Shown in pieces: positions 45,781-55,802 of a stretch of DNA of 64,000 nt (the first letter of the stretch is position 1; each line of letters begins with the position of its first letter). The position numbers and the translations under genes were made by a program. Under the pieces are notes generated by a model. It was not told where the DNA came from, ran no database searches, and saw nothing but the letters and a program-made list of their open reading frames with translations. Source of the DNA: Thermoprotei archaeon (GTDB lineage: Archaea; Thermoproteota; Thermoprotei; Thermoproteales; B15-G16); contig QMRC01000003.1 of NCBI GenBank assembly GCA_003649205.1, forward strand, positions 227,429 to 291,428, in the 5' to 3' direction.

Positions 45781-45869
45781 GCCCCCGTAGCTCAGCCTGG
45801 GAGAGCATCCGGCTGAAGACCAGAGCAGAGACCGGAGGGTCCCGGGTTCAAATCCCGGCGGGGGCACCA
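45781..45869 (+). tRNA. tRNA-Phe(GAA) with 12-nt intron at 37/38, encoded CCA
   Basis: GCCCCCG acceptor stem pairing with CGGGGGC-ACCA; anticodon arm TCCGG-CTGAAG|ACCAGAGCAGAG|A-CCGGA (intron 45819-45830); T-arm GGTTCAAATCC. Confidence 0.93.
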
Positions 45870-45896
45870 CCCCCACTCCTCCTATCCCCAAACCCC

Positions 45897-46316
45897 TCAA
45901 GACCTACTCCTCCTCAACTCATCCCTAATCTCACGAAGAAGAACCTCCAACCCACTAAACCCCTCACGAAATTCCCTCTCCAACCTCACAAATCCCTCAC
46001 GTAGCTCCCTCTCCAACCTTGAAACCCCATCATGAATCTCCTTCTCCAATCTCTCAAATCCCTCGTGAAGCTCGACCTCAGTATTCTCCAACCTACCAAT
46101 AATCTCCTCATCCCTACTCGTGAACAAACCATAGAGAGTAACGACAAGACCTAGGATACTGGCAACATCACCAACAACAGGAGGACTACTGTACTTCAGG
46201 ATACAGCCAATGACAATGAGCGCAATACCTATAGCAGTTATGATCCAGTACAGAATCCTCCTACGCCTAAGCCAAGCCTCAAACTCCTCCTCAGACCTAA
46301 ACCTCCTACGAGTCAC
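45897..46316 (-). CDS. Membrane protein with hendecad coiled-coil repeats
   Basis: 2 TM helices then 4x ~11-aa repeat E(L/I/F)xEGFxRLEx. Confidence 0.7.
   Translation of the reverse strand: MTRRRFRSEEEFEAWLRRRRILYWIITAIGIALIVIGCILKYSSPPVVGDVASILGLVVTLYGLFTSRDEEIIGRLENTEVELHEGFERLEKEIHDGVSRLERELREGFVRLEREFREGFSGLEVLLREIRDELRRSRS
45950..46080. repeat. Imperfect 33-bp coding tandem repeat (4 units)
   Basis: Recurrent CCCTCACG(A/T)A..TCCCTCTCCAACCT units. Confidence 0.6.
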
Positions 46317-46446
46317 ACAAAAACACCCGGTAAGTAGACACCAAACACCCTAATAACCCCACCACCCACAGACACCAAACCACCACAGGGCAAGTCACAT
46401 CCCCACAATACAGCTTTCCTGTAGACCCCCATAAGAATTCAGGAAT

Positions 46447-48669
46447 GTGGAGATCTCGGGAAGAACCATGTGGTACACCCTACCAATCAAGCTCCTAACC
46501 CTAACACTACTCACACTCTACACATTCCCCGGTACCTGGCTCAGCTACATCTCCCTCACCGAAGGAACTCCCACGTACCTCGTACTCGCTATTCCGTACT
46601 GGTTACTCTGGTTCTTTACCTTCCCCAAGTTCCTTCATTTCCTGTGTCTTTACCTGACTTCTCGTCCTCGTTGTGTGGATCGTGGTGTGTATGTTTGTGG
46701 TCATGGTTTGTGGTCCTGTATTCTGCTCGTGTTTAGGGTGAGGAATTTCTCTCATGTTCCTGATGTCACTACGTTGTTTAGGTGTGTTCCCTATGTTGCT
46801 AAGATCTTCTTAGTGCAGGTCTACGGTAGGGTTTTTCTCATTGTTGAGTTGCATAGGTTCTTCTGTTCTCGTAGTTGGGTTGAGGGTGTTGTTCGTTACT
46901 GTGCTGGTGTTGTCTCTGGTCTTGGTCTTGATGTTGAGTTGAGTGATTTCGATTTTGTTCTTGGTGATTGGTTTTGGGTTTCTGTCTTGTCCTCTATTGG
47001 TTTTCGGAGGGGTGATGGTTCTGGATGTTCTTCTGGTGTTGGTGTTAGGGTTTTGAGTAGGGGTGGTTGCTATGTTCTTGTTCTTGAGAGGTGTGGGTTG
47101 AGGGATTTGTCTCGTTTCTACTCTGGTGTTTGGAGGGGGTTGTTTGGTTGGTTTCGTTCTCTTGGTCGTGGTGGTGCTAGGGATTCGTTTGTTGAGGGTG
47201 TTTGTGGTTACTTTGTTAGGAGGTGTGAGTGTGTTGTTAGGGTTGGTCTTTACTCTGTTGTGTTTGATTGTAGGTTGAGTGGTTTGCTTAGGTTTTTGCT
47301 CTGTGTTTGGTGGAGGAGGTTTGTTCATCAGTTGTGTGCTCGTGAGTGTGTTGTTGGTGATGTTGTTTCTTCTCTTGTTTCTCAGCTTCTACGTAATCTA
47401 GAGCTCGATGTTGGTGGTGGGGGTGTTGTGCTTGGTAGGAGGGTTCTTGGGTTTAGGGTTTGTGGTGATGCTGTGTACTTTGTTCCTGATGGTCATACTC
47501 TCGTTGTTGGTATGACTGGTAGTGGTAAGTCTAGTACTGTTGCTTACTTGGTGAGGGAGTTGTCTAGGTGTTCTAGGGTTTTGGTCATTGACTTCGTGGG
47601 TGCTTTCGTTAATTTGCCTGGTGCTGTTGTTCTTGAGCCTCCTCGAGATCTCGCTCTTGATCCTCTTCAGCTTGGTTTCTGGAGGGGTATTGAGGTTGTT
47701 GAGGATGCTCTGGTGTACTGCTATGGTTTTGAGAGGGGTTCGTTCTCTCCTATTGTTGTTGAGGTTCTTACTAGGGCTAGGGATAGGGTTCGTGAGCTGT
47801 GTCTTCGTGAGCTTGTTGATGTGTTGAGGGGGATGTACTTTGAGTTTCCTGAGGGTAGTGAGTACAGGTCTGCTGTTGCTGCTGCTTTGAGGAGGTTGGA
47901 GCCTCTTGTTAGGTACTTTAGACCTGGTGACTTTACGTTGAGTGATCTCGGTTGTGGTGTTTACGTTGTTGATTTGAGTGGTATGGATTCTGAGGTTGCT
48001 AAGGCTGTCTTTGCTCTTACGTTCATGGAGTTTCTCTATAGGTTGGGGAGGTTGGGTGTTGGTACTGTTCTCGTTGTTGATGAAGTTCATAGGGTTGCTC
48101 CGGTACATGCTCGTGGTGAGTCTATTCTCGTTAAGTTGGCTAGGGAGGGTAGGAAGTGTGGTCTCTACCTAATTCTCATTGATCAGTCTATTGCTAAGGT
48201 GAGTGATGTTGTTCGTGGTCAGTGTCGTAATGTCTTGTTCTTCAGGCTCACTGAACCTAGTGAGTTGAGAATTGTTGAGGAGTATGGTATTGAGCCTAGA
48301 GAGGTTCAGACTTTGAGGATTGGTGAGTGTCTGTACTACAGGGACGGTCTCTACGCTAAGGTTAAGACGAATTACCTTGAGCTTGCTGCTCCTAGGGGGT
48401 TGAAGTTGAGGAGGGTTGACTTAAGTAAGTTGCGTGAATTAGCTAGGAAGTACGGTGTGCCTAGGGGTAAGAGAGAGTACTTGATCCAGTTCGTGCAAGA
48501 GCACGATGTTGAGGACGTAATTAAGTTACTGAGGGAGAGGTCATACCCAATATTTGCTAGGTCAGGTAGGTTGACGAACTTCGGGAAGGCAGTTCTAGAG
48601 TACTATGGATTGAGTGTCGATGTACCTGAAGTAAAGGAGAGTGGTTATCAAGGTTCTTCAGGTGAGTGA
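46447..48669 (+). CDS. Membrane-anchored HerA/FtsK/VirB4-like (DUF87-type) ATPase
   Basis: N-terminal TM helices; HTLVVGMTGSGKS Walker A, VLVIDFVG, VLVVDEVH Walker B, REGRKCG arginine finger, IDQS. Confidence 0.85.
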   Translation: MEISGRTMWYTLPIKLLTLTLLTLYTFPGTWLSYISLTEGTPTYLVLAIPYWLLWFFTFPKFLHFLCLYLTSRPRCVDRGVYVCGHGLWSCILLVFRVRNFSHVPDVTTLFRCVPYVAKIFLVQVYGRVFLIVELHRFFCSRSWVEGVVRYCAGVVSGLGLDVELSDFDFVLGDWFWVSVLSSIGFRRGDGSGCSSGVGVRVLSRGGCYVLVLERCGLRDLSRFYSGVWRGLFGWFRSLGRGGARDSFVEGVCGYFVRRCECVVRVGLYSVVFDCRLSGLLRFLLCVWWRRFVHQLCARECVVGDVVSSLVSQLLRNLELDVGGGGVVLGRRVLGFRVCGDAVYFVPDGHTLVVGMTGSGKSSTVAYLVRELSRCSRVLVIDFVGAFVNLPGAVVLEPPRDLALDPLQLGFWRGIEVVEDALVYCYGFERGSFSPIVVEVLTRARDRVRELCLRELVDVLRGMYFEFPEGSEYRSAVAAALRRLEPLVRYFRPGDFTLSDLGCGVYVVDLSGMDSEVAKAVFALTFMEFLYRLGRLGVGTVLVVDEVHRVAPVHARGESILVKLAREGRKCGLYLILIDQSIAKVSDVVRGQCRNVLFFRLTEPSELRIVEEYGIEPREVQTLRIGECLYYRDGLYAKVKTNYLELAAPRGLKLRRVDLSKLRELARKYGVPRGKREYLIQFVQEHDVEDVIKLLRERSYPIFARSGRLTNFGKAVLEYYGLSVDVPEVKESGYQGSSGE

Positions 48670-48675
48670 AGGTGG

Positions 48676-48796
48676 ATGAAACCCGACGTCGATAAGGCGT
48701 CGGGTGGATCCCCAGAGGTTAGGTCCGATGAAGGGGGTTATAGGTCCGGAGGCACTGCCGAGGAGGGACCGAAGCCGGGTCCTGACCGGTCCGAGA
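48676..48796 (+). ncRNA. Structured 5' RNA of the TnpB-like locus (hairpin, two K-turn hairpins, long-range pairing arm)
   Basis: ACCCGACGTC-GATAA-GGCGTCGGGT; CCCC-AGA-GG...CC-GATGA-A-GGGG; GGTCC-GGA-GGC-ACT-GCC-GAGGA-G-GGACC; arm 48772-48794. Confidence 0.65.
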
Positions 48797-48798
48797 GA

Positions 48799-49611
48799 AT
48801 GCAGCTTGTGGTTGGGTTTGACTACAATGTGAGGTCAGTGATTGCTGCGTACAGAGTTCATGATCGAGAGATGTTGCTTGACGTCTGTAGCGTAGTCAGT
48901 GAACGAGGTTTTGTGCCGAAGCTTATTGATGTTGGTGAGGGTGAGTACTACGTAGTGATTAGGGGTGTGGTAGAGGTGCCGAATCTAGTTAGCTACGTTA
49001 AGGAGGGTTTGAGGAAGTTCGTTGAGAAGTACCCGTTCGTTATGAGGTACAGAGATGTCAAGGTTGAGAGAGGGTCATGGGCTTGGAGGGAGATTAAGAG
49101 ATCCTGTAGACCGATACCGAGTGTATTCAGCTACGTCATTGAGCTAGTTGAGGAGTACGGTGTTGTACCGAATTGGTTGTTTGTGTACGATCTAGAGCTG
49201 TATCTGAGGAAGAAGGTTAGGAGATGGAGGAAGTGGTACGTAGTTGAGTTGAGGAAGCTACTGAATAGGTTAATGGCTTGTCTAAATAGGTTGAGCGAGA
49301 AGTACGACGTAATTGCGAAGATTGAGTGGTTACCGTATGTCGATGTGCGTAGTGAGGTAACTGATAGGGTGAGGGGTTGGAGGTACACGAAGTTGATGAG
49401 GGCATTAGTTCACTGCACGAGGAAGGGTATTAGGGTGGTTGCTATTGAGCCAGCTGGTACATCGAGGTACTGTCCGGTGTGTGATTCAGTAACTGAGGTA
49501 CTGAGCTATAGAGAGTTGAGATGTACTAAGTGCGGTCGTGTGTGGGATAGAGATGAGATGGCTGCGATTAATGTAGCGAGGAGTAGAGCTGTTAAGTATG
49601 TTCTGAAGTAG
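48799..49611 (+). CDS. N-terminally truncated TnpB/Cas12f-like RuvC + Zn-finger nuclease (270 aa)
   Basis: RuvC-I VVGFDYN at residues 4-10, RuvC-II KIEWL, GIRVVAIEPAGTSRYCPVC...CTKCG, RuvC-III DRDEMAAINVA. Confidence 0.85.
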   Translation: MQLVVGFDYNVRSVIAAYRVHDREMLLDVCSVVSERGFVPKLIDVGEGEYYVVIRGVVEVPNLVSYVKEGLRKFVEKYPFVMRYRDVKVERGSWAWREIKRSCRPIPSVFSYVIELVEEYGVVPNWLFVYDLELYLRKKVRRWRKWYVVELRKLLNRLMACLNRLSEKYDVIAKIEWLPYVDVRSEVTDRVRGWRYTKLMRALVHCTRKGIRVVAIEPAGTSRYCPVCDSVTEVLSYRELRCTKCGRVWDRDEMAAINVARSRAVKYVLK

Positions 49612-49635
49612 CGTAGTGCTAGTGCTCAGTTGTTC

Positions 49636-49843
49636 AGTGGCCCTGAGTCCTGGTCAGGGCTCGGGTTGATCTGTAAATTGATGAGGCCCGGGCCCTGGCC
49701 GGGATGATGAGGGGGCTTGGTGAGGAAGCGGAAGATGACTAAGGACTTGGCGACCGCAGACGCGGCGCCAAGCACCGGGGCCCTCAGTGTAGCTCAGTGC
49801 TGATACTTAAGTGTTTCGGACCGGTCAGGGCCCGGGGCTTTTT
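49636..49843 (+). ncRNA. Structured 3' RNA (omega/reRNA-like) with K-turns
   Basis: 19-bp stem 49648-49666/49686-49704 with four G-U pairs, bracketed by CTGA/ATGATGA and TTGA/TTGATGA K-turn boxes; hairpin CTTGGCG..CGCCAAG; arm 49816-49840; T-tract. Confidence 0.7.
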
Positions 49844-49845
49844 GC
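49836..49845 (+). terminator. Oligo-T terminator candidate
   Basis: TTTTT directly after the closing arm of the structured RNA. Confidence 0.45.
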
Positions 49846-49946
49846 ATTGTTTAGGTGTCTGTTCTTGAGCTAGGTCTATGGTATTTCTGTTCTGTGCTTC
49901 TTCATGTATGTTGTCTAGACTTATTTAGCTGTTAGGTCTGTGTTAT

Positions 49947-50363
49947 ATGGTAGGTGGGTATTTCTTGGGTGAGAGGGGGCTTTCGGCGAGTGATATTGTT
50001 GCTCTTTTCGAGAAGGATCCTTCAGCTCTTAAGAAGTTAGCTGAGCTTCTCGTTACGGTACCGGACATAAGGTTGGCAATAGTTGAGGGTGTGATGAGGG
50101 AGGTAGCAACGAAGAGAGATCTTGAAGCTCTTAGGAAGGAGCTACAGGAGTACATTGACAAGAGAATAGCTGAAGTAAGAAGTGAAATAGCGGAAATAAG
50201 GAGTGAGTTAGGTAGATTAGGTGATAGAGCAGCGAGATTAGAGGCAAGAGTAGCTAGATTGGAGGGACAAGTTAGTTTATTGATCAAGATCTTCATCGCG
50301 TTTAACGTACCAATCCTCATAGGGATAATAGGGATCTTACTCAAGATGGTACTAGCACCCTAG
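49947..50363 (+). CDS. PaREP-type coiled-coil protein with C-terminal TM helix
   Basis: VATKRDL motif, heptad repeats, hydrophobic C-terminus. Confidence 0.75.
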   Translation: MVGGYFLGERGLSASDIVALFEKDPSALKKLAELLVTVPDIRLAIVEGVMREVATKRDLEALRKELQEYIDKRIAEVRSEIAEIRSELGRLGDRAARLEARVARLEGQVSLLIKIFIAFNVPILIGIIGILLKMVLAP

Positions 50364-50381
50364 AGCACTAGGTGCTGAGTA

Positions 50382-51386
50382 ATGTTAGTAATTGAACCAA
50401 GGTTCGTAGATAGAGAACGAGAACTAGAGACACTACGTGAACTAGCTAGTTACGGAAGTCCACTACCAATATACCTCTACGGTCCTGAAGGTTGTGGAAA
50501 AACGAGGTTACTGAGAGAATTCATCAAGAGAGTGCACGGAGTGACAATCTACATAGATGCACTAGAGAGGAGGGATCCAGAGACAGCAATAGTGTTGAAT
50601 CCAGTGATTGAAGAGGTAAGGAAGTTCGTAAGGGAAGTAGCATTGCAAGCCATAGGACCGCTAGGTACGTACTTAGCAGATAGGATAACACTCATAGTTG
50701 AGAAGATAGCTGAGAAAGTGAGTATTGAAGGAAGGTCATTGATAGTGATTGTAGATGACATCACTAGAGCCATAGGGCTAGATAGAGTTGAGTGGTATGT
50801 AAAGTGGTTGTACGAGCTAATAGGTAAGCTACATAGGAGGTATAGTCCAAAGAGTATACTCATAGTAGCTACGACAAGTGAAGGTAAGAGCCTAGACCTA
50901 GTAATGAGACACACGTACACAGTAGTGAAGTTGATATGGAATTTACCGAGAGAACCCTTCTACGAACTAGTACAGGAACTAAAACCACCGAACCTCAACC
51001 TCAGAGAGGAGCTATGGCGGGTAACAGGTGGGAATCCAAGAGCACTAATAGAGATAGCACACGTACATAGATGGGATATAGGTAGCTGGTTAAATACCTT
51101 AGAGAGAAGGCTCACGAAAGTACTAACTACCATACGCTCGAGAAATCTAGAGAATGAGTTGATGAAGGCCATAGAGGATCCAGATACAGTACACACAGAG
51201 GCAACACCAAGAACTGAGCAACTACAGCAAATACTCACTGAAGAGAACCTACTCATCTACAAGTACGTGACAACACTACACAATACCGAAGTACCAAGTG
51301 ATCTAGAGCTAGGGATAGGGAAGTACTACGCATGGCAAATACCTGCATACAGAGACATCCTAAAGAAACTACTGATACAGAGATGA
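50382..51386 (+). CDS. Archaeal AAA/STAND-like ATP-binding protein
   Basis: FVDRERE, YGPEGCGKT, IVDD, ATTSEG, TGGNPR. Confidence 0.88.
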   Translation: MLVIEPRFVDRERELETLRELASYGSPLPIYLYGPEGCGKTRLLREFIKRVHGVTIYIDALERRDPETAIVLNPVIEEVRKFVREVALQAIGPLGTYLADRITLIVEKIAEKVSIEGRSLIVIVDDITRAIGLDRVEWYVKWLYELIGKLHRRYSPKSILIVATTSEGKSLDLVMRHTYTVVKLIWNLPREPFYELVQELKPPNLNLREELWRVTGGNPRALIEIAHVHRWDIGSWLNTLERRLTKVLTTIRSRNLENELMKAIEDPDTVHTEATPRTEQLQQILTEENLLIYKYVTTLHNTEVPSDLELGIGKYYAWQIPAYRDILKKLLIQR

Positions 51387-51449
51387 GGACAAGAGCAAGA
51401 ACATCAAGTACATAAGTGTGAGCAACTTGAGACATACCTAGGTGACACA

Positions 51450-52154
51450 GTGCAAATACCGTGGGACACAGTAGCAACAGTACTCACAGTAGTAACCTCA
51501 ATAGGAACACTAGCGTACTGGCTAGGAAGAAAATTCACAGAGATAGACAGTAGATTCAAGCTAATTGATGAGAGGTTTAAGACCATTGACGAGAGATTTA
51601 GAAGCATCGATGAGAGATTCAAGCAAATAGACAAAAGATTCGAGCAAATAGAGAAGAGATTTGAAGAGATAGATAGTAGATTCGAACGAATAGAAGAGAG
51701 ATTCAGGGAGATAGATAGGAGATTTGACGAGTTCAAGAAGTATGTTGATACAAAGTTCGAGGATCTAAGAAATTACATTGATGTTAGGATGGAGAAAATG
51801 CTTAAGACCATAGCAAGAGCAACAACACATACTCACGAAGTCGTTATCGAGTACCTAGGACTAAAGGGACTGCTAGAGGAAAAGGAAGTAACGTACCTAA
51901 GACACAGAGTAAGAGAAGTACTTGAAGCATACACCACAGCAACACCAAACCCACTAACCAAGGAAGAGTTGGAATTCCTAAAGAAACTCTTCAGCAAAGA
52001 CATCAACGAAATGACAATAGAGGAACTAGATAGGGCATACGAGATCGGGATAAGGCTCTTCAGTAAGGACATGGATGATAGAGGATACTTCATAGCAATA
52101 GCAGCCATAACCATAAAGGCATACCTAAAGTTCAAGAAAAAGCAAGATACCTGA
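51450..52154 (+). CDS. Membrane-anchored coiled-coil repeat protein (PaREP-like)
   Basis: N-terminal TM, ~9x FxxIDxR heptads, C-terminal NPLTKEE domain. Confidence 0.8.
   Translation: MQIPWDTVATVLTVVTSIGTLAYWLGRKFTEIDSRFKLIDERFKTIDERFRSIDERFKQIDKRFEQIEKRFEEIDSRFERIEERFREIDRRFDEFKKYVDTKFEDLRNYIDVRMEKMLKTIARATTHTHEVVIEYLGLKGLLEEKEVTYLRHRVREVLEAYTTATPNPLTKEELEFLKKLFSKDINEMTIEELDRAYEIGIRLFSKDMDDRGYFIAIAAITIKAYLKFKKKQDT
51534..51730. repeat. Imperfect 21-bp coding tandem repeat (~9 units)
   Basis: Units such as ATAGACAGTAGATTCAAGCTA / ATTGACGAGAGATTTAGAAGC. Confidence 0.75.
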
Positions 52155-52218
52155 TAAAGCAAACCACAACACTAAATGAGAGTAGATCCAGAATCATTAC
52201 GAAAGTAGGTGAATTAAC

Positions 52219-53217
52219 TTGACAATAGTCATCAAAGAGCTAGACATAGAGGAATTTCGTGGAGTAAGGAAACTAGCAAAGCCCATCAAATTAAAGAAAT
52301 TCAACATCATCATAGGCAGAAACAACACAGGAAAAACAACAATTCTAGAAGCACTGTACCTGCTAGCAACACCCTCCGGATACACAGCACCGCTAACTGA
52401 AGTAAGCAGACTAGATTTCATAACACAGCTACATGGAGGAAAATCGTGTCTAATCTATGGATATAGTGGAACAGCGAGAATAAGGTACCGGCTATTCAAT
52501 GACGAAGTAGTGACAGTAACCCTAACAGCAGGTACCCTAGAATCAATAGTAATAAACAATAGAGAAGCATATGTAGAGACATATATTGACTACATAGCGA
52601 AGCTACTCAACATAAGTAAGGATGAGGTACACAACCTCACACTCTACATACCAAATAGCACCGAATTCCTCAAGGAACTCCGAAACAAGCTAAAAGAACC
52701 CACAACCTGGTCCACACTAACCAAGTACGGAGCACACAGGAAGATAGTCACCGAACTAATCAACCCCACAGTCTACGACAAGTACACAGAAATCCTAATT
52801 GAGAGAAATGAGTTGAAGCTGAGAAAGGAGGTAAGTGAGGAAATCGGGCCACTCTACATCCACGTAGCAGATTTAGGAGACGGTATAGAACGAATATGCC
52901 TCACAGCACTAGCACTCGAGTATCTAAAACCAAGACTAGTACTATGGGATGACATGGAAGTAGCAGCACACCCAGGACTCATCGAGGTAGTGATGAAGTG
53001 GTTAACATCAAAGAACTGGCAAGTAGTAATCACAACACACAGCATAGACGTCCTCCTCGAACTAACATATCAATCACCAGAAGACAGCCAAGTAATAATC
53101 CTGAGAAAAACACCAGACGACATAGTAGAACACACAACACTAACACCAAACGAACTAGAAGAGTACTTCAATCGTGGAATAGACATAAGGAAACTAATCG
53201 ACCTACTCGAACTATGA
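52219..53217 (+). CDS. ABC-type (AAA_15/AAA_21) ATPase
   Basis: IEEFRG, GRNNTGKT, LGDG signature, LWDDME..AHP, ITTHS. Confidence 0.88.
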   Translation: MTIVIKELDIEEFRGVRKLAKPIKLKKFNIIIGRNNTGKTTILEALYLLATPSGYTAPLTEVSRLDFITQLHGGKSCLIYGYSGTARIRYRLFNDEVVTVTLTAGTLESIVINNREAYVETYIDYIAKLLNISKDEVHNLTLYIPNSTEFLKELRNKLKEPTTWSTLTKYGAHRKIVTELINPTVYDKYTEILIERNELKLRKEVSEEIGPLYIHVADLGDGIERICLTALALEYLKPRLVLWDDMEVAAHPGLIEVVMKWLTSKNWQVVITTHSIDVLLELTYQSPEDSQVIILRKTPDDIVEHTTLTPNELEEYFNRGIDIRKLIDLLEL

Positions 53218-53762
53218 AAGTAACGAGAGGACAAGTACCAAGAACAGTAGATACAGTACTCCTAACAGGTAACGGTGTAGAAGAGGTAAGAGTACTGAAG
53301 ATAATAGCAGAGAAGTTTAACCACAGAGGAAAAGTAATCATAATACCAACACTACCAACGAGAACAGGAGTAAGAGGAGTAATAGAGCAACTATCCACAC
53401 TCCTACACAAAACCAGACCCAGGTACTGCTTAATCATAATCGATAGAGAACACGTACCCAACAAGGACGTATTCTCAAGCACATTGAAACAATACGGCTT
53501 CGAAGTACTAGACATAAAGGAACTTAATGACCACGCACTAGTAATAACATGCCGCAAAGGACCAAAGCAAGTAACAATCTACATCGCTATCTCAGGATTC
53601 ACAGAGAAAGGCAACATAGAAGAAAACATCAGAAAATTAAGAGAAGTAATAGGCGAAGCAGCAACAAAAGAAGAACTACTCAAGAGAGCAAGCATGAAAC
53701 ACCTAGAACAAGCATTCCCTGGACTAACAACAATACTCAAACTACTCTCAGAAAACACCTAA
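53214..53762 (+). CDS. Partner of the ABC ATPase, TOPRIM/DUF3226-like
   Basis: ATGA overlap; GNGVEEV and IIIDRE acidic motifs. Confidence 0.6.
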   Translation: MKVTRGQVPRTVDTVLLTGNGVEEVRVLKIIAEKFNHRGKVIIIPTLPTRTGVRGVIEQLSTLLHKTRPRYCLIIIDREHVPNKDVFSSTLKQYGFEVLDIKELNDHALVITCRKGPKQVTIYIAISGFTEKGNIEENIRKLREVIGEAATKEELLKRASMKHLEQAFPGLTTILKLLSENT

Positions 53763-53867
53763 TCACAAACACCACACCCACTAGCGAATAAAAACACAAA
53801 ACCACAACCCAGAGCAAAGCTAATCCATAATAAGCACCCAAACAAGGAGAAAGCTCGGTGAAGAAAA

Positions 53868-54395
53868 GTGATAGACCTAATCATAATCCTAATCCTAGTA
53901 ATTACACTCCTCTACATCACCACAAAATACATCAAGCTCAAAGGAGAGGTAGAGCACAGAGCAAGACAACTATTCAACCAATGGAGAAGTAGAGAACTCG
54001 AGAAAGAAGCCACCGAAAGAGCAAAACTACTATTCGAAAAATGGAGAATAGAGGAGGAAGAGAGAATTAGAGAAGATGCTATCAAGAGATCCATAGCAAC
54101 GATAATCGGTAAAGTAGGTGAGCAACTAGCACCAATACTAATCTGCATGGAGTACGGCATAAATCCCAAAGACCTAAGATTCATAGGCTCACCAATAGAC
54201 TACATAGCATTCAAAGGATTCACAGAAGGAAAACCAGAAGAAATCACATTCATAGAGGTAAAAAGCGGCAAAACGACAACACTAAGCCAAAGAGAGAAAT
54301 GGGTCAAAGACCTAGTAGAGAAAGGCAAAGTAAGGTGGTTACTGATACACATACCAGCAGAAATAGAGAAACTGAGACAAAGAGCTGTTAAGTAG
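53868..54395 (+). CDS. Holliday-junction-resolvase-like endonuclease with N-terminal TM
   Basis: GKVGEQLAP, RFIGSPIDYIAF.G, FIEVKSG. Confidence 0.88.
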   Translation: MIDLIIILILVITLLYITTKYIKLKGEVEHRARQLFNQWRSRELEKEATERAKLLFEKWRIEEEERIREDAIKRSIATIIGKVGEQLAPILICMEYGINPKDLRFIGSPIDYIAFKGFTEGKPEEITFIEVKSGKTTTLSQREKWVKDLVEKGKVRWLLIHIPAEIEKLRQRAVK

Positions 54396-54512
54396 CAGAA
54401 CTGCTAGGTATAGTCACCAGTCAAGAAATAGCTTAATTTCAGGTATATTTACCAGAGCTGATGTACTTTACTCAAGCAGTGAAGTGTAAAACATTGTACA
54501 CTGGCAGTATCA

Positions 54513-55802
54513 GTGGTAGTGTGGGAAGTTATGACTCGGCTGAGAAATTTAATCACTATTGCTTTACTAAGTGGTAAATCCGTATTATTGGTTGGCGCTC
54601 CTGGAGTTGGTAAAACGAAGTTAGCTATCGATGTTGCTGCCGAGCTGACCGGTGCGCATCCTATTCTCGAGACTGGTCGTAGTGAGTTAACTTATGAACT
54701 GCTTACATGCTTCAATGAGCTGAGAGAGGTTAAAGGACATGGAGATGTACTGGTTAAGAGGTTAGGTTCTCTCGGTATTGCTATCCTAGGTACTTGGCTT
54801 AGAATTATTGAGGGTAAGGGCCCTCTATGGTATGTTCTCGATGAAGTCAATAGATGTAATATTGAGGTCGCACTAGGTAGAGTATTTACGGCTCTCGATC
54901 CTGAATACTACAACATTGCTGTGTTACCCCCTGATATATTGGATGAGGAGAAGCTTGCCGAGGAAGATATCACAGTACTAGCTAACTGTCTTGAAGTATC
55001 AGTCGACAGGTGTAAGGAGTTAATGGTGAAGTTGCGTAATATCCTAGGTAGTAGGGTTTGTGGTATCCCAATTCCTCGGTCTTTCAGAATAATTGGCACT
55101 ATGAATGTTGTTGATAGAGCACACCTATTTAAGATCGGTTATGCTTTAAGTAGAAGATTGATACCTATTCCTGTAATTCCTCCATATATGAAATACGATC
55201 CAGGGCTCGATATAGAGAACCTCATTGTGCAGTTATATGACAATTTTCATCTGGATAAAAACTCTGTGTTCACTTCCTTGCAGGAGTATGTTGAAGCACT
55301 AGTCTCGAAAGAAGTTGAGTTCCTTACCTTTAGGTTCACTAAATCACTATTACCCGAGTATGATGTACCCTGTTTGGTACGTATTGAATTTGATGAAGTA
55401 GTCAAATTACTAGACAGATTGAGAGATACTAGTAGTAAGTTAATTGAGAGCTTTGCCGGCATTTATGCCGTAGCACTCAATGATCTGAAGATTGATCTAG
55501 GAGTTTCCATATTAGTTGATTTCATCTCTCTGTTATTGGCTAGGTGTATAAGTCAGAATATAGCGTTAGTCTCAGTATCAGATGAGGCGTTACTAGATCT
55601 CGCCATAGCATCATTATTGCTACCTCAGCTCTCTTCCCTAATCCCAATGCTTAAGATTGAGCAGTTCCTTGGAAGCAGTCCTCGTACTATAGCATTTAGA
55701 AACTTCATGAAGTTCCTTGAGAATAACTTTAGTTCAAGTAGCCTCACATACCGTGCTGCTGAGGCCATTATGTATGAACTACCGAGTATTTCATCACCGT
55801 GA
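54513..55802 (+). CDS. McrB-like AAA+ GTPase without N-terminal DNA-recognition domain
   Basis: GAPGVGKT, LDEVNR, IIGTMNVVD (NxxD), YALSRRL. Confidence 0.88.
   Translation: MVVWEVMTRLRNLITIALLSGKSVLLVGAPGVGKTKLAIDVAAELTGAHPILETGRSELTYELLTCFNELREVKGHGDVLVKRLGSLGIAILGTWLRIIEGKGPLWYVLDEVNRCNIEVALGRVFTALDPEYYNIAVLPPDILDEEKLAEEDITVLANCLEVSVDRCKELMVKLRNILGSRVCGIPIPRSFRIIGTMNVVDRAHLFKIGYALSRRLIPIPVIPPYMKYDPGLDIENLIVQLYDNFHLDKNSVFTSLQEYVEALVSKEVEFLTFRFTKSLLPEYDVPCLVRIEFDEVVKLLDRLRDTSSKLIESFAGIYAVALNDLKIDLGVSILVDFISLLLARCISQNIALVSVSDEALLDLAIASLLLPQLSSLIPMLKIEQFLGSSPRTIAFRNFMKFLENNFSSSSLTYRAAEAIMYELPSISSP

Follow-up and report, generated by a model that had tools for sequence, protein, structure and literature searches.

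A rare Thermoprotei family of TnpB-derived proteins that keeps only the nuclease lobe

To our knowledge, every TnpB, Fanzor and Cas12 protein characterised so far couples its RuvC lobe to a WED/REC lobe, which reads the transposon-associated or protospacer-adjacent motif (TAM/PAM) and cradles the duplex of guide and target. In the TnpB of ISDra2, WED comprises residues 1-12 and 117-176, REC residues 13-116, RuvC residues 185-326 and 360-375, and the zinc-ribbon domain TNB residues 327-359; according to PMC10097598, from which these limits are taken, WED and REC hold the TAM/PAM duplex and the heteroduplex, and the RuvC domain itself binds stems of the omega-RNA. Here we describe a gene at 48799..49611 (+) of a 64,000-nucleotide stretch of contig QMRC01000003.1 from an uncultured, heat-loving Thermoprotei archaeon (the window, meaning the whole stretch analysed). 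On the basis of motifs, family alignment and a structural model, its 270-aa product is a member of a small, unnamed Thermoprotei family that derives from TnpB and keeps only the nuclease (NUC) lobe. No natural TnpB family without the N-terminal lobe was found in the literature, the available parts of PMC10691335 and PMC10097598 included; supplements, which could list such clades, lie outside this statement.

The full open reading frame (ORF; 48676..49611, +) encodes 311 aa, and an internal ATG at 48799 opens the 270-aa protein, which begins MQLVVGFDYN. An earlier note, made from the DNA letters alone, had described a TnpB-like protein reduced to its nuclease lobe with an intact catalytic triad, and each of the motifs it named is in place: the RuvC-I aspartate D8 (VVGFDYN; GAC codon, 48820-48822), the RuvC-II glutamate E176 (KIEWL; GAG codon, 49324-49326), the RuvC-III aspartate D252 (DRDEMAAINVA; GAT codon, 49552-49554) and the CTKCG zinc finger, the two zinc knuckles being C225/C228 (CPVC) and C242/C245 (CTKC). 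Family libraries recognise the C-terminal half. Specifically, Pfam Cas12f1-like_TNB (PF07282) matches residues 206-259 (E 1.5e-13), NCBIfam guided_TnpB (NF040570) aligns residues 136-261 with profile positions 262-388 of 389 at 48.6 bits, under its cut-off of 100, a PHROG "transposase" family covers residues 152-263, and solved TnpB and Cas12f chains match by sequence from about residue 173 on, whereas residues 1-135 have no family match in the Pfam, NCBIfam and PHROG libraries. The long insert after RuvC-I that had also been noticed amounts to about 80 extra residues before RuvC-II, the spacing between the two motifs being 168 residues here as compared with 81 in the canonical TnpB P0015 and 87 in ISDra2 TnpB.

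The 41 in-frame codons upstream of the ATG (48676..48798, +), with a 10-bp hairpin at 48681-48705, are GC-rich hairpin sequence and not a WED/REC domain, as the earlier note had held: their GC content is 0.60-0.70 against about 0.45 for the locus, they fold into hairpins with a z-score of -2.36 (all flank z-scores are against 200 shuffles, 5 of which fold equally well here), and the extension is not conserved in the family, its counterparts in homologues being anything from absent to roughly 30 residues long. In the sister-strain protein P0158, which differs from the window's protein at 7 of 311 residues, all 41 leader codons are unchanged. The upstream gene, coding for a HerA-like ATPase, stops at 48669, that is 129 nt ahead of the ATG, so that no space is left upstream for a WED/REC lobe or for a remnant of it.

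An AlphaFold2 model of the 270-aa protein, obtained from a 19-row family alignment in which 4 rows duplicate others, has a predicted local distance difference test score (pLDDT) of 86.8 and a predicted template-modelling score (pTM) of 0.81. The earlier note had left room for a fold other than a TnpB-type RuvC; instead, all 36 matches found by Foldseek in the PDB at E<=0.001 are chains of TnpB, Cas12, Fanzor or TranC. In superpositions by VIA-align the model covers the NUC lobe of TnpB and Cas12f structures from its first residue: OsCas12f (9nzs_A) with Z 13.1 (model residues 1-265 on chain residues 221-419), ISFba1 TnpB (8iaz_A) with Z 12.9 (1-268 on 187-387), AsCas12f with Z 12.2-12.8, and ISDra2 TnpB (8h1j_A) with Z 10.9 and 172 aligned residues (1-268 on 184-377). 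Since this ISDra2 range corresponds to the RuvC plus TNB span given in PMC10097598, the protein starts where the NUC lobe of TnpB starts; in other words, model residue 1 aligns with TnpB residue 184-187, and the WED/REC lobe of about 180 residues is absent. An independent ESM Atlas model of the homologue P0004 reaches template-modelling (TM) scores of 0.54-0.59 to OrfB_IS605 models over residues 2-272. About 80-90 residues of the window's protein remain without superposition, forming an insert that is mostly helical and includes a beta-hairpin. In particular, these parts are helix 23-35 and strand 41-46, between beta2 and beta3, and the helices 63-76, 94-102 and 107-119, which precede the long helix 126-165; for the corresponding insert of P0004 (residues 18-150) no structural neighbour above TM 0.37 was found. 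With the geometry of its triad as modelled, the protein would be an active metal-dependent nuclease.

To delimit the family, an exhaustive phmmer search was run against 1.84 billion representatives (E<=0.001), which returned 210 matches. Setting aside the entry for the window itself, six of the matched proteins, 265-293 aa long, show 27-32% identity in alignments that start at residue 4-5 and extend to about residue 265, and two further homologues align end to end in MAFFT, the remaining matches being canonical TnpBs or fragments that cover residues 130-265 only. The closest end-to-end relatives are thus these proteins of 265-293 aa and not full-length TnpBs, the outcome that would have spoken against a distinct compact family. 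Altogether, the family as collected comprises about a dozen homologues (252-346 aa), which come from 4 of 120 genomes surveyed in the class and from eight metagenome contigs. The four genomes with full-length matches are that of the window (G000, 94% complete), G019, G026 and, with a weaker match, the same-genus comparison genome G059; G033 and G034 carry partial copies. Across the phylum, strong matches came from just two of 401 sampled genomes. Word-index searches yielded the window's own protein only, then nine proteins, and a profile search against 5.8 billion proteins contributed few new members. In phage and plasmid collections the matches were C-terminal ones to canonical TnpB only, with no record covering >=80% of the query. 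The sole source annotation among the members reads "hypothetical protein [Thermoprotei archaeon]".

The members share one architecture. In a nine-row MAFFT alignment that includes the window's protein, D8, E176 and D252 are invariant in all rows, as are G6, N10, K174, W194, T221, S222, P226, C228, C242, C245, R251 and N258, and in the members with an intact N-terminus the GxDxN strand of RuvC-I follows after 3 to about 35 unconserved residues. All members carry the additional 80 or so residues between RuvC-I and RuvC-II, a stretch that is conserved and confidently modelled. PF07282 was detected in 18 of 19 members and PF01385 in none of the 19 at E<=1. In five of the nine alignment rows the first zinc knuckle (window residues 225-228) reads T-P-C-C rather than C-P-x-C, which means that two adjacent cysteines would have to be the zinc ligands. 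In a tree built on 114 C-terminal columns and rooted at the midpoint only, 12 core members form one clade (approximate likelihood-ratio support, SH-aLRT, 99) nested among canonical TnpBs; a divergent pair, designated after locus L026 (family loci are given here as L numbers), stands apart on a very long branch, which makes its placement unreliable. Profile-profile comparison is confident for the C-terminal 100 columns only, the pairing of RuvC-I with RuvC-I appearing as an alternative at a probability of 9.7%.

The coding sequences evolve under purifying selection. The proteins of loci L025 and L035 are 91% identical, with a ratio of nonsynonymous to synonymous substitution (dN/dS) of 0.089 at a dS of 0.52, and both halves are constrained (0.11 N-terminal, 0.067 C-terminal). 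A second, divergent paralogue of the window's genome (C1:186136-186945, +; locus L053), which adjoins tRNA-Asp, is the syntenic orthologue of L026:5959-6771(-) in the same-genus genome, at 93.6% nucleotide identity; it lacks the TS motif and keeps the D-E-D triad, and its dN/dS of 0.156 resembles the 0.14 of the neighbouring metallo-beta-lactamase (MBL)-fold gene. The idea of a distinct compact family put forward in the earlier note is thereby supported: its members are short, begin close to RuvC-I, keep the triad, fall into one clade and are under purifying selection. It seems settled that the protein is a TnpB-derived, nuclease-lobe-only member of a rare Thermoprotei family that looks functional and catalytically competent. 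As it has no REC lobe and does not reach the curated family cut-offs for TnpB (NF040570 under its cut-off, PF01385 absent), we call it TnpB-derived and not a TnpB.

Some observations on the paralogue and on degraded copies are added here. Downstream of the L053/L026 paralogue lies a compact element of about 85 nt (RUGAUGA, hairpin, CUGA, T-run), in which only the hairpin loop differs between the species. Beyond the tRNA-Asp, the window's genome has about 1.8 kb (C1 ~184,032-185,843) where L026:7065-7153 has 88 nt, another insertion or deletion at a tRNA border. As for degraded copies, L028 is a fragment, and at the independent loci L027:5774-6439(-)/L038 and L032:35-592(+) the family protein is represented by its N-terminal 130-141 residues only; next after it, in both cases, comes a homologue of an unnamed ORF (L033:3099-3620) that in L033/L034 lies downstream of the intact gene. 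These N-half loci could represent a recurrent deletion or an alternative form.

Compared with the TnpBs of IS200/IS605 and IS607 elements (8h1j, 8iaz), the family has the same RuvC RNase-H fold with its D-E-D triad, the same CxxC...CxxC zinc-ribbon TNB domain placed before RuvC-III and a RuvC-I motif of archaeal type, reading GVDxNxR where archaeal TnpB fragments have GVDxNxxNVT; the superposition extends over the whole protein (Z 10.9-12.9), and structured sequence directly follows the stop codon. It differs by its size, about two thirds of that of TnpB, by lacking the WED and REC lobe and PF01385, by its longer RuvC-I to RuvC-II segment, by a score under the NF040570 cut-off and by the lack of a Y1 TnpA gene in the genome. 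With regard to residence in an IS200/IS605 or IS607 element, flanking hairpins are present, as candidates only for left and right ends (LE/RE); the single gene with a serine-recombinase (resolvase) domain lies on another contig of the genome, and no canonical TnpB above the cut-off was found there. Cas12f (Cas14) and the other miniature type V effectors provide the best structural match (OsCas12f) and the PADLOC matches at the C-terminus, but the protein described here is about half their size, has no WED/REC/zinc-finger (ZF) N-terminal half and is accompanied by no CRISPR array or cas genes; the earlier note had likewise seen neither TnpA nor a CRISPR array in the window, and no CRISPR-like array was detected in it. 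The RuvC resolvase of T. thermophilus is similarly sized and has the same core fold, superposing with Z 10.6 over 140 of 166 residues, but RuvC has no zinc-ribbon insert and the sequence signal of our protein is specifically TnpB-like. IscB/IsrB, finally, are a conceptual precedent, in that a large RNA takes the place of the REC lobe (PMC10097598); they belong to a different lineage, the one from which Cas9 descends, and have a PLMP domain and a bridge helix, and their RNA partner is demonstrated, whereas here it is inferred.

The family gene is a single-gene module of about 1.1-1.3 kb with GC-rich structured flanks. In the window, the 3' flank (49612..49851, +), with a T-run at 49839-49843 near its end, has a minimum free energy of -116.8 (z -4.83), and none of the 200 shuffles folds as well. 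It is 99% identical to contig C89 of the same-genus genome, as compared with 92-94% for the flanking genes; the homology ends at 49851, and among the 120 class genomes the flank was detected only in its own genus. Exactly at the end of the 3' flank there is a breakpoint: between 49851 and 49979, the same-genus genome (G059:C89:253-2333, locus L043) and one metagenome contig have 2,081 bases against the window's 127, a segment with two ORFs (177 and 290 aa) without a Pfam match.

Comparison of loci brought out a C-box-like motif common to the family, GGGATGATGAG at 49701..49711 (+), which is followed in the window by GATGAC (49734-49739) and CTGA (49800-49803) on the same strand. The 10-mer GGGATGATGA lies 4-95 nt past the stop codon in five of eight distinct full-length loci (window, L026, L031, L033, L037), with L035 one base off, and in none of 15 canonical-TnpB loci. 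A hairpin starting at the stop codon has the motif as its 3' arm in L031, L033, L035 and L037, and RNAalifold assigns to this hairpin, for L031, L033 and L035, 19 pairs, 5 of them with compensatory changes. MAFFT alignments of the 3' and 5' flanks across loci are poor. On the 5' side, L031, L033 and L027 share a block, ACACNGTG...CCCGA...TCGGGTCTAAGGGGGTGAAGGG, about 170-200 nt ahead of the start codon, to which the window's leader bears only a loose likeness. The 3' flank resembles archaeal C/D-box small RNAs (sRNAs) in its RUGAUGA box, the later CUGA and the T-run, and in several loci also in an AT-rich stretch 20-30 nt upstream of the C-box-like motif. It differs from them in a box spacing of 70-110 nt with internal GC hairpins, in place of the C-12nt-D'/C'-12nt-D arrangement, and no consistent terminal stem was seen across loci. 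The best Rfam match, sR18-like, scores 20.5 bits against a gathering score of 45, and neither the flanks nor the integrase-adjacent elements described below gave an Rfam family above its threshold.

Sequence pairing across the gene was also observed. A long-range inverted repeat of 20-22 bp encloses the ORF, with the 5' arm at 48775..48796 and the 3' arm at 49814..49835 (both +), the latter being able to pair locally with 49684-49702 too. In its strict form, 48775-48794 with 49816-49835, the repeat has 20 nt at 95%, its one mismatch being U.G in sense RNA; with G.U allowed, the helix has 22 bp, as against a mean of 14.1 and a maximum of 19 for the longest run in shuffles. In L005 the repeat measures 24 nt at 92% and can be prolonged to about 60 bp of imperfect pairing. 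Such helices are clear in two of seven loci tested (window and L005) and borderline in L037, the others having none, and folding the flanks as unrestricted duplexes was informative for L005 alone. Two further candidates were dropped: repetition of tRNA pieces at the far end of the unit, and guidance of tRNA-Asp methylation by the L026 RNA, both of which came down to 9-nt matches equal to the shuffle maxima.

How might such a reduced protein act? The reading that we favour, tentatively and at somewhat less than even confidence, is that it works as a ribonucleoprotein, like its TnpB ancestor, with an RNA made from its own flanks, chiefly from the 3' flank with its GGGAUGAUGA motif, and that the holding of nucleic acids, once the task of the lost WED/REC lobe, would fall to this RNA, to the insert or to both, much as the earlier note had supposed. 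We are led to it because the 10-mer is linked to the gene in the family and not in canonical TnpB loci, because the 3' flank folds far better than its shuffles and the hairpin shows compensatory pairs, and because this flank is better conserved within the genus than the genes around it. In addition, the RuvC domain of TnpB is itself a binder of omega-RNA stems, and IscB/IsrB offer a precedent for an RNA in place of a REC domain (PMC10097598). Several observations weigh against it. The flanking RNA is heterogeneous across loci: the covariance model of the 3' hairpin (R1) recovers only its training loci L031, L033 and L035 and none in the window, L037, L026 or L005; L025 has no 3' element and L035 only the first hairpin, both being intact loci whose proteins are under strong purifying selection; and the L026-type paralogue has no structured 5' flank. 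Furthermore, C-box...CUGA elements also stand beside integrase genes, so that the motif may mark small-RNA genes or, at the borders of mobile elements, attachment sites, and not a partner RNA. We also know of no TnpB or Cas12 that works without WED/REC. An extended version of the ribonucleoprotein reading, which we consider unlikely, is that the 260-290-aa RuvC plus zinc-ribbon core, using structured RNA from its own flank and perhaps the insert, would be the smallest natural RNA-guided nuclease architecture yet seen; the flank RNA, with k-turn-like RUGAUGA/CUGA motifs that archaeal L7Ae could bind, would then, perhaps together with the insert, hold both guide and target.

The integrase-adjacent elements just mentioned are two homologous stretches of about 70 nt, GGGGGAUGAUGA...CUGACCCyUACCCCCUCGCC, found in the window's genome 110-150 nt downstream of tyrosine-integrase genes, at C2 ~53,770-53,860 (-) (L050 ~1575-1672) and C6 ~48,750-48,850 (+) (L051 ~1543-1650). 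Both integrases have a C-terminal zinc ribbon, one being intact (387 aa) and the other decayed, and the elements end in tails like that of L031. Each may represent a small-RNA gene or an attachment site.

A protein-only nuclease of a mobile element is the explanation that competes best, and we regard it as conceivable but on balance doubtful. Here, the core and its insert would recognise a DNA structure or sequence, alone or with a partner such as the HerA-like ATPase, in element maintenance, homing, integration-site processing or conflict between elements, and the C-box-like RNAs would be independent sRNA genes or attachment sites. The genomic context lends this some weight. Together with the ATPase gene, the family gene of the window occupies a GC-skewed island about 4 kb long, with a tRNA-Phe (45781..45869, +) at its left edge and host-like genes on the other side. 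The HerA/FtsK-like ATPase (46447..48669, +; assigned by family matches) is directly upstream, and the metagenome locus L037 has a homologue of it, 30% identical over 389 aa, likewise ahead of the family gene. A tRNA gene occurs within 3.3 kb in six of ten distinct loci, and the DNA in which family genes sit is variable or derived from mobile elements. The existence of intact loci without the 3' element, the presence of similar elements beside integrases of the same genome and the superposition of the T. thermophilus RuvC point in the same direction. On the other hand, the ATPase is directly upstream in just two of the ten distinct loci (window and L037), the neighbours in other loci being housekeeping genes, the 10-nt motif accompanies the gene in five of eight loci of unrelated neighbourhoods, and no DNA-recognition domain was found, either in the fold search with the insert of P0004 or in the domain search of 19 members.

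It is improbable, in our view, that the enzyme is directed at RNA, processing its own transcript or an adjacent C/D-box-like small RNA, or regulating that RNA, rather than cutting DNA. According to PMC10278001, TnpB generates omega-RNA by processing the mRNA that encodes it, and the helices that enclose the ORF pair best in sense RNA, all three mismatches of the two strict repeats (window and L005) being G.U in the sense strand; but three of three is a weak statistic, and the helices are confined to the few loci named above.

Less probable still is a transposase of a small element bounded by terminal inverted repeats (TIRs), in which an RNase-H-fold D-E-D protein would move the unit of about 1.1 kb between the repeats that flank the gene in L005 and in the window. 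Inverted repeats are absent from L026, L033 and L035, inspection by eye, with no formal search, showed the arms of the window and of L005 to be free of adjoining direct repeats, the genomes examined carry one or two diverged copies at syntenic sites and no recent multiple copies, and sequence and fold place the protein within TnpB and not among DDE transposases. A decaying, N-terminally truncated TnpB pseudogene is scarcely credible: degraded copies exist in the family (L027/L038 and L032 with the N half only, the L028 fragment), but the consistent N-terminus, the invariant triad, the dN/dS of 0.09-0.16, the conserved and confidently modelled 80 extra residues and the end of the upstream gene, which rules out a WED/REC remnant, all contradict it.

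The surroundings of the gene deserve a few further remarks. The ATPase ORF, the start codon of which is uncertain, has an N-terminal portion of about 340 aa rich in Val, Gly, Cys and Arg and without a family match, its strand is strongly G+T-skewed, and its best PADLOC match is mad8. Directly after the tRNA-Phe, four tandem 33-nt repeats (45945-46076) lie in a 139-aa ORF (45897-46316, -) without a family match. Downstream of the gene, coiled-coil repeat proteins are encoded at 49947-50363 and 51450-52154, and the region 50382-55802 is a run of ATPases and nucleases typical of variable or defence-like regions, including an archaeal ATPase_2 (50382-51386), an AAA_15/AAA_21 protein (52219-53217), a Holliday-resolvase-related endonuclease (53868-54395) and an AAA_5 protein (54513-55802). 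Contigs from four DNA runs offered no trustworthy empty site; a joint of 45870 to 50478 was set aside, as its shorter side had only 26 letters. The contig to which the window belongs (C3 of G000, 291,428 bp; the window is C3:1-64000, reverse strand) is identical to its own reverse complement, an assembly artefact. Being a perfect palindrome, it shows each feature of the window twice in genome searches, and an apparent second copy of the gene at C3:276227-277036 is a product of this artefact.

A selected and catalytically intact family without WED/REC suggests two options: the RuvC/TNB core may have a new mode of targeting, relying on RNA alone, on a small inserted domain or on a protein partner, or else this core may have been re-used for a job that is not guided. 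Whichever holds, it bears on the origin of RNA-guided nucleases from plain RNase-H-fold nucleases, or on their decay into such enzymes. Should the protein prove to be RNA-guided, a thermostable polypeptide of about 270 aa would also be attractive in practice as a scaffold for very compact editors.

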